The notes under the pieces were generated by a model. The model saw only the letters and a list, made by a program, of their open reading frames with translations. It made no database searches and was not told the DNA's origin. 64,000 nt of DNA from Centroscyllium fabricii (lineage: Eukaryota), in NCBI GenBank assembly GCA_051313645.2, contig JBNRSN020000006.1, positions 241,862,001 through 241,926,000 of the forward strand, given 5' to 3'. Shown here one piece after another: positions 458 through 894 of this stretch. The translations under genes were made by a program, and so were the position numbers. The stretch's first letter is position 1. The number at the start of each line of letters is the position of its first letter.

Positions 458-894
458 CAGGTCCGACACCGTTAATCCGGCACCGTCGGGACCAGGCCGG
501 TGCCGGACTAGTGAAAAATCAGAATGATTGAAGCTTCGGCGCCGCGCATGCGCAGACCATTCAAAATGGCCGCCGCGCATGCGCAGACCATTCAAAATGG
601 CCGCCGCGCATGCGCAGACCATTCAAAATGGCCGCCGCGCATGCGCAGACCATTCAAAATGGCCGCCGCGCATGCGCAGACCATTCAAAATGGCCGCCGC
701 GCATGCGCAGACCATTCAAAATGGCCACCGCGCATGCGCAGACCATTCAAAATGGCCACCGCGCATGCGCAGACCATTCAAAATGGCCACCGCGCATGCG
801 CAGACCATTCAAAATGTCTGGGAGAGGCCCGGATTCGTGCCGGTCGACTGAAGTTTCCGGATTAACAGTGTCCGGATTAACGCCGCCAGACCTG
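458..894. mobile_element. Tigger/pogo-like (Tc1/mariner) MITE, copy 1, with an internal 31-bp tandem array
   Basis: Ends CAGGTC...GACCTG with subterminal TTAATCCGG/CCGGATTAA inverted repeats. TA at 456-457, with the right-hand TA apparently mutated to CA. The interrupted host repeat resumes after 896. Homologous to 63103-63447. Confidence 0.8.
541..815 (+). repeat. 31-bp minisatellite, ~9 units (GCCGCGCATGCGCAGACCATTCAAAATGGCC)
   Basis: Directly visible near-perfect tandem units; later units carry a G>A variant (GCCACCGC). Confidence 0.95.

Follow-up and report, generated by a model that had tools for sequence, protein, structure and literature searches.

MITEs that carry motifs of host factors are already known from plants, tandem-repeat MITEs from clam and frog, and the use of YY1 and NRF1 from mouse retrotransposons. 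Amplification of factor motifs by plant MITEs was reportedly described by Henaff et al. in 2014. Elements of the pogo superfamily are characterised, in the relevant part of PMC7386202, by a TA target-site duplication and short terminal inverted repeats (TIRs), and the section of PMC3879986 on the clam MITE DTC84 proposes the palindrome at its unit junctions as a hotspot. In mouse, according to the part of PMC12420836 that deals with this factor, NRF1 is present in germ-cell nuclei and binds the promoters of young transposons only if these are unmethylated.

Here, we analysed a window of 64,000 nucleotides (the whole stretch of DNA, in which all positions below are counted) that contains, at 458-894, an element with a tandem array of paired NRF1- and YY1-type motifs. 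The original prediction was that this MITE family may disperse a ready-made, expandable promoter or enhancer cassette, with the present copy lying downstream of CSRNP1.

Structure of the element and its 31-bp array

The element and its surroundings comprise the following features.

456..457, no strand: left target-site duplication, TA
458..894: non-autonomous DNA transposon, 437 bp, between TA (456-457) and CA (895-896)
458..480, plus strand: left terminal inverted repeat, 23 nt, pairing with 872-894
458..539, plus strand: left arm, of which positions ~17-72 are 77-86% like one end of the genome's own DDE_1 transposon
540..816, plus strand: tandem array, 8.9 units of 31 bp, 99% matches
544..553, no strand: NRF1-type palindrome GCGCATGCGC, first of nine, then every 31 bp (575 and so on) to 792-801
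563..570, minus strand: YY1-type core (GCCAT and following thymidines), first of eight, every 31 bp to 780-787
817..894, plus strand: right arm, containing a 15-bp duplication (852-881) as well as the right inverted repeat (872-894)
895..896, no strand: right target-site duplication, CA mutated from TA (TA in 73 of 84 other copies)
897..1698, plus strand: high-copy host repeat, insertion target of the element, extending also left of 456
1222..1698, plus strand: weakly endonuclease-like frame inside the host repeat (PF03372, E 3.7e-4, under the cut-off)
11155..12228, 17396..17704 and 19090..19407, minus strand: CSRNP-family coding exons (PF16019), a neighbour outside the element
63103..63447, minus strand: second copy of the wider clan of related elements, with the module as an inverted pair and no array

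The inverted arms 458-480 and 872-894 are 83% complementary over 23 nt, and the high-copy repeat flanking the element also exists in an empty form, contigs joining 456 directly to 896 in all four of four runs. Judging from its sequence, the host repeat is probably a LINE. A GC-rich composition and a CpG observed/expected ratio (o/e) above 0.6 are the thresholds of CpG islands; the element, with 59% GC and an o/e of 1.29 (0.53 for the whole window), has such a composition. Its predicted folding is much stronger than that of shuffled sequence (z -6.1). An open frame at 532-903 was considered for a protein-coding role and set aside, since it has no Pfam match and is a by-product of the repeat.

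It is near certain that the element is a non-autonomous, cut-and-paste transposon of the pogo/Tigger type with a TA target, where the name Tigger is putative and given by resemblance. Its flanks read TA and CA, its 23-nt TIR falls within the 40 bp allowed for pogo elements, and its ends are 77-86% identical over 22-53 nt to an element encoding a DDE_1 transposase. The latter, a PF03184 family of about 2.4 kb, has the same first six bases and the 77-86% similar subterminal stretch at one end, and a TIR that differs from that of our element at positions 6-16. No autonomous partner with the same TIR was found in the 46 DDE_1 loci read (150 scored, from 1,715 candidates). In 41 of these loci there is no palindrome at all, in four it belongs to nested clan copies, and one holds an untraced site (L084); the palindrome was thus traced to the own ends of no transposase-bearing element among the 46, the L084 site being untraced. 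At least five of the 46 loci (L070, L077, L100, L102, L103) have clan copies within or next to a pogo-type element that carries a transposase, which may only reflect density. On the small contig C967, eight DDE_1 matches between 6.98 and 9.29 Mb share the same 558-residue open frame, perhaps by segmental or recent amplification.

Like a MITE, the element is short (437 bp), non-coding (no Pfam match) and present in high copy number (at least 3,535 copies). In a strict sense MITEs are uniform in size and structure; copies here range from 182 to 1480 bp with variable interiors (n = 84), and we therefore class the element as MITE-like.

The predicted array of about nine 31-bp units was borne out, as was the presence of the NRF1-type palindrome in every unit (9 of 9). 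Both motifs agree with published definitions: GCGCATGCGC is annotated as an NRF1 site in a passage of PMC3575792, and the YY1 core, GCCAT with following thymidines, is defined in one of PMC11602158. The claim that every unit also carries the YY1 motif stood for the 8-letter core, found on the minus strand in eight of nine units, and failed for the full 13-letter string originally reported, which occurs only in five (562-686); units 6-8 differ by one letter next to the core, and a short deletion has truncated unit 9. Units 1-6 are identical, and a G>A variant that is frequent in the family marks the junctions at 727, 758 and 789. Each unit combines the palindrome with a 5-bp hairpin that covers half of the YY1 core. 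Chance yields the palindrome in a shuffled 31-mer of the same letters in 17 of 200,000 trials, and of 5,000 Markov simulations of the element, 3.0% contained at least one palindrome and 7.3% a YY1 core; the nine copies are a single event repeated, not nine independent ones. A single NRF1 locus is present in the genome (five exon matches). Two of these five exons, which encode the DNA-binding region, were compared with the solved NRF1 and are nearly identical to it (53 of 56 and 44 of 46 residues), so that the binding specificity, as predicted from sequence, is likely the same.

Regarding the neighbourhood, the location originally given, about 5.5 kb downstream of the 3' end of CSRNP1, is plausible in part. 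The gene is a CSRNP-family member with its stop at 11155 and its 5'-most matched exon at 19090-19407, and the 5.5-kb spacing agrees with a poly(A) signal at 6323, by which the putative 3' end is placed. The proposed regulatory role found no support: the element lies beyond the 3' end of the gene, no closer than 18 kb to its 5' exons, nothing ties this copy to CSRNP, and it is probably not a CSRNP enhancer, although a distal enhancer could act over such a distance. To the left of the window, no host gene or promoter was recognised in 40 kb, where the frames look LINE- and LTR-like by eye. The same 40 kb (L091-L094) hold a YY1-core-rich tandem frame about 18 kb to the left and retrovirus-like frames at about 27-32 kb. 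Further along the window lies a third clan element (35909-36457), whose clan-type ends have no NRF1 module close by and whose interior includes a 32-bp repeat (36316-36396). Long minisatellites follow at 39382-44004 (period 26 bp, 179 copies), 53056-56091 (period 25 bp, 122 copies) and 60554-60899 (period 25 bp, 14 copies).

Spread, decay and conservation of the motif pair

A DNA search with the element gave 2,277 candidates, of which 40 were scored and 30 read, with unrelated flanks in all 30. Genome-wide, the exact left end occurs 1,622 times, and at least 3,535 times if CpG decay is permitted at its four CpGs (control 0 in both cases). A related clan end has 161,669 further matches (control 6), from which the clan would comprise roughly 80,000 elements, if not more. 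Organisms B, E and F likewise have the subfamily and its unit in their runs; contigs from C, D and G, which show presence and not absence, had the left arm only or nothing.

For comparison among copies, we took from one contig the first 90 copies with an exact end, and in 84 of these a right end lay within 1.5 kb; sampling by exact ends is biased to young copies, and the samples come mostly from one contig. The right flank is TA in 73 of the 84 complete copies and CA in four, the left TA being preset by the search. Their median length is 408 bp. Collecting copies and counting units in each had been proposed at the outset, and the numbers range widely: at most one forward 31-bp unit is present in 64 of 84 copies, a run of five or more in six, and 7-22 units in the 30 top-scoring loci, which were picked for likeness. 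Nine units therefore lie in the tail of the distribution, though not uniquely so.

Inside the copies, one set of modules recurs as a mosaic, in either direct or inverted order, and inverted pairs are present in 59 of 84 copies. Internal arrays, of ten different periods, occur in 45 of the 84; the palindrome core is present in all 45 and the YY1 core in 44, the sole exception being one 36-bp array. An NRF1-like motif lies 60-130 bases inside 265 of 302 clan ends in the fetched loci, a sample dominated by this subfamily. Exact NRF1 palindromes number 488,438 in the genome, against 813-2,445 expected under Markov models fitted to 104 kb of local DNA; we used this expectation in place of a control (360 counts) whose four CpGs, versus two, make it overstate the excess. 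Palindrome-YY1 pairs number 48,155, and the first 100 listed all have spacers of 7 or 9 bases. We read by eye the first 50 palindromes on contig C1 (3 Mb): 12 clan elements account for 41 of them, LTR-like repeats for five and another repeat for three, with one standing alone. The wider clan likely supplies most of the genome's perfect NRF1 motifs, and the idea that a transposon family spreads and expands an NRF1- and YY1-like module applies on a scale far beyond that first suggested.

Several further repeats were noted in the course of this survey. One clan subfamily on contig C1 (L195-L201, L203) shares a GC-rich middle resembling a captured gene start, in which there are CCAAT- and X-box-like words. 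Other clan subfamilies hold E-box- and CRE-like words. LTR-like repeats at L172, L183-L185 and L190 carry the NRF1 palindrome beside CRE-like words and represent a second, unrelated source of the motif, and a repeat at L171, L189 and L191 has it within a small inverted structure.

Inserted copies have lost CpGs. Counting ends with transitions allowed gave 3,535 at eight CpG positions and 1,628 at nine other C/G positions; in the latter search, intact ends made up 83 of the first 100 rows by hand count, or about 1,350 overall. Per-base decay at the ends is thus 11% at CpGs versus 2% at other C/G, with a ratio of 4.8-8.2 over the plausible range. Across inserted copies, NRF1 motif included, CpGs decayed 5-9 times more than other C/G. 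When copies are grouped by motif number (many, some, few), arm CpGs show transitions at 9.5%, 11.5% and 11.7%, respectively, and other C/G in the same copies at 1.1-1.9%; this analysis used the 103 of 120 copies with both arms and omitted seven variable columns and the searched 27 bases. More motifs conferred no significant trend towards protection of the arms in these 103 copies (rho -0.15, p 0.14). Among the 34 arrays with five or more units, 175 of 680 NRF1 CpGs have decayed, the palindrome is kept in 107 of 340 units and both motifs in 88 of 340. A T>G change at unit position 6 (17%) is a possible matching artefact and was excluded from the evidence.

CpG-biased decay is an established mark of germ-line methylation. 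Inserted copies would thus be methylated in the germ line, as far as their sequences tell, and most of them would not bind methylation-sensitive NRF1; at 5-9 times the decay of other C/G, the family as a whole has not been protected from germ-line methylation. This is a historical, family-level signal that says nothing on the present state of a single copy. It runs against the notion of a ready-made active cassette, as do the 88 of 340 units with both motifs and the lack of a significant protective effect of motif number.

The copy under study is one of only two among the 34 arrays without a decayed NRF1 CpG. Its arms bear three transitions at 20 CpGs, that is, three CpG transitions and four other private changes in 160 bases. 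In the 277-base array, the shared G>A at three adjacent junctions is the sole change, and some 207 non-CpG bases are free of private ones. Zero change in 207 non-CpG bases has a probability of 0.015-0.0002 at 2-4% divergence. Protection would spare CpGs only, whereas the array is free of non-CpG changes too, which argues that it is younger than the arms. The array of this copy has likely expanded recently in place. The remark that most CpGs are intact is true of this array, and the likely cause is recent expansion, not protection. Consistent with local growth, adjacent units are closer to each other than distant ones (0.095 vs 0.117, p 6e-5, 31 arrays). Identical on either strand and repeated across the interior, the self-complementary palindrome is likely the microhomology for slippage or gap-repair template jumps, much as has been proposed for DTC84 (PMC3879986).

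Conservation between subfamilies speaks of the donor lineages. End sequences formed 18 clusters of three or more, of which nine (four left-type, five right-type), chosen for carrying the module, were compared; the nine left out were near duplicates, forms with deletions and three whose ends have no module close by. Between consensuses, one of 36 motif columns varies, versus 61 of 137 columns beside them (Fisher p 4e-7, columns and clusters not being independent); among TIR columns, 11 of 48 vary. The single motif change falls on the variable base of the YY1 core. Seven of nine spacer columns are invariant too, and the conserved unit may be the whole block, spacer included. The subterminal sequence beside the motifs is just 62-89% identical between subfamilies, and at one end the YY1 core adjoins the palindrome without a hairpin arm and is still kept. 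CpG transitions between consensuses number 32 of 409, versus 61 of 1159 elsewhere, and transversions exceed transitions, 207 to 93 (both counts pairwise and not independent). As read from the consensuses, donor lineages diverged otherwise than by CpG decay and keep both motifs. Ends recombine between subfamilies. Clusters c14, c15 and c24 lack the module near the end (compare 35909-36457 in the window) and yet have multiplied, so the module is not needed for movement.

Explanations for the kept motif pair

The explanation that we prefer, and would back at even chances, combines a recent slippage expansion of a pogo/Tigger-type copy with a motif pair kept by donors, likely via host NRF1 and YY1 binding. 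Taken by itself, the host-factor step, in which such binding would favour donors, stands about even. In outline, a pogo/Tigger transposase supplied in trans would move the element, and palindrome microhomology would lead through slippage or template jumps to mosaic interiors and arrays. Intact motifs would likely bind NRF1 and YY1 in germ cells, leaving the donor open and unmethylated; open donors would be excised and re-copied more often, and copies with intact motifs would become the next donors. Inserted copies, once methylated, would lose their CpGs, and the CSRNP host gene would be a bystander. Points against the host-factor step are the fixed spacer columns and the spread of module-free subfamilies, and CpG-rich consensuses are common to many transposon families.

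The block might instead have been kept for structure or for the transposase, through template-switch self-repair or subterminal transposase sites, its likeness to NRF1 and YY1 sites being a relic, perhaps of a captured promoter piece. The strong fold of the element relative to shuffles (z -6.1), the palindrome and 5-bp hairpin (half of the YY1 core) in each unit, the conserved spacer (7 of 9 columns), the inverted module pairs in 59 of 84 copies and the proposed junction hotspot of clam DTC84 (in the section of PMC3879986 on it) would all fit. However, the other end keeps a YY1 core that has no hairpin and changes only at its variable position, and the palindrome was traced to the own ends of none of the transposase elements in the 46 loci (the L084 site being untraced); we consider this alternative possible but doubtful. 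Plain common descent, with one founder that held both motifs and a clan too young or too recombined to show divergence, would dispense with selection. The first 100 listed pairs, with spacers of 7 or 9, do point to one ancestral module, and the recombination of ends between subfamilies agrees with it, but flanking subterminal sequence has fallen to 62-89% identity while the motifs stayed fixed, which makes this account highly improbable.

The model put forward in the original prediction, a tunable promoter or enhancer for host genes whose strength rises with unit number and which acts on CSRNP, draws on the match of the motifs to published NRF1 and YY1 definitions, on the nine of nine intact palindromes of this copy (one of two undecayed arrays in 34) and on its composition (GC 59%, CpG o/e 1.29). 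Precedents are the YY1-bearing tandem monomers that drive mouse L1 (in the part of PMC11602158 on these) and E2F binding to MITE-borne sites in Brassica (cited in a passage of PMC5950925). We nevertheless judge it improbable. CpG decay is family-wide and includes the motif, and motif number shows no significant trend. The array is free of non-CpG changes as well, which speaks of youth and not protection. The copy is embedded in a further repeat on the 3' side of the gene, 18 kb or more away from the 5' exons, and in the 40 kb on its other side we recognised repeats but no host gene. A minority of copies elsewhere may have been co-opted by the host.

Our preferred explanation, of slippage expansion and motif-keeping donors, has a bolder extension that we offer only tentatively. 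The clan, of the order of 100,000 elements, might have been selected for NRF1/YY1 sites, so that fresh copies would be brief germ-cell mimics of CpG islands, open and unmethylated, reachable by transposase and near housekeeping promoters, which would explain the captured gene starts. If so, the clan raised the number of NRF1 sites in the genome some 200-600 fold, and DNA methylation must hold half a million decoys from the product of a single NRF1 gene.

Comparison with known systems

Taken singly, this copy is ordinary, and its significance rests on the clan-wide numbers: a DNA transposon that is independent of a promoter conserves the motifs of two host promoter factors between subfamilies, even as these motifs are worn down by the host wherever copies have inserted. 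If selection acts on the host-factor link, this would be a testable way for non-autonomous elements to outcompete others for transposase, and a natural experiment setting methylation against NRF1 at about 490,000 perfect sites, in copies that vary in units and decay. In the literature searched, which takes in few subscription journals, we found no vertebrate DNA transposon with a conserved NRF1 and YY1 pair, and supplementary tables and repeat databases may list the family; PMC12676858 holds no NRF1 or YY1 passage on MITEs outside its references.

Non-autonomous pogo elements (Tigger/pogoR; Gao et al., 2020, PMC7386202, in its description of these elements) share with ours the TA duplication, TIRs below 40 bp and DDE_1-related ends. 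By comparison with the elements described there, ours has no transposase and a variable promoter-motif mosaic as interior (182-1480 bp). Variable arrays between fixed arms, junction palindromes and ordered variants are also found in clam DTC84 (PMC3879986) and in Xenopus Xmix/Xstir and miDNA4 (PMC9659126), whose units are not described as factor-binding motifs in the sections of those papers that treat them; here, unit lengths of 31, 32, 36, 63 and 71 bp derive from one module set.

In mouse, the YY1 monomers of L1 Tf (PMC11602158) and the NRF1-activated IAP and L1 promoters (PMC12420836) are, in the relevant passages, likewise transposon-borne YY1 or NRF1 sites, tandem in L1 and repressed by methylation. 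Unlike the clan element, which is not known to need transcription, these retrotransposons need a promoter to copy; any benefit of the motifs to the clan would therefore act through access or methylation state. Closest in effect are the motif-amplifying MITEs of plants (E2F in Brassica, bZIP60/PIF3/TCP; Morata et al., 2018, PMC5950925, in the parts on these motifs), which also multiplied a host factor motif genome-wide. Binding is demonstrated there for E2F, whereas the sites of the clan are known from sequence; and where the plant MITEs carry hundreds to a few thousand sites per motif, the clan described here is a vertebrate one that has spread a fixed pair of motifs for CpG-island factors, with about 490,000 exact sites.
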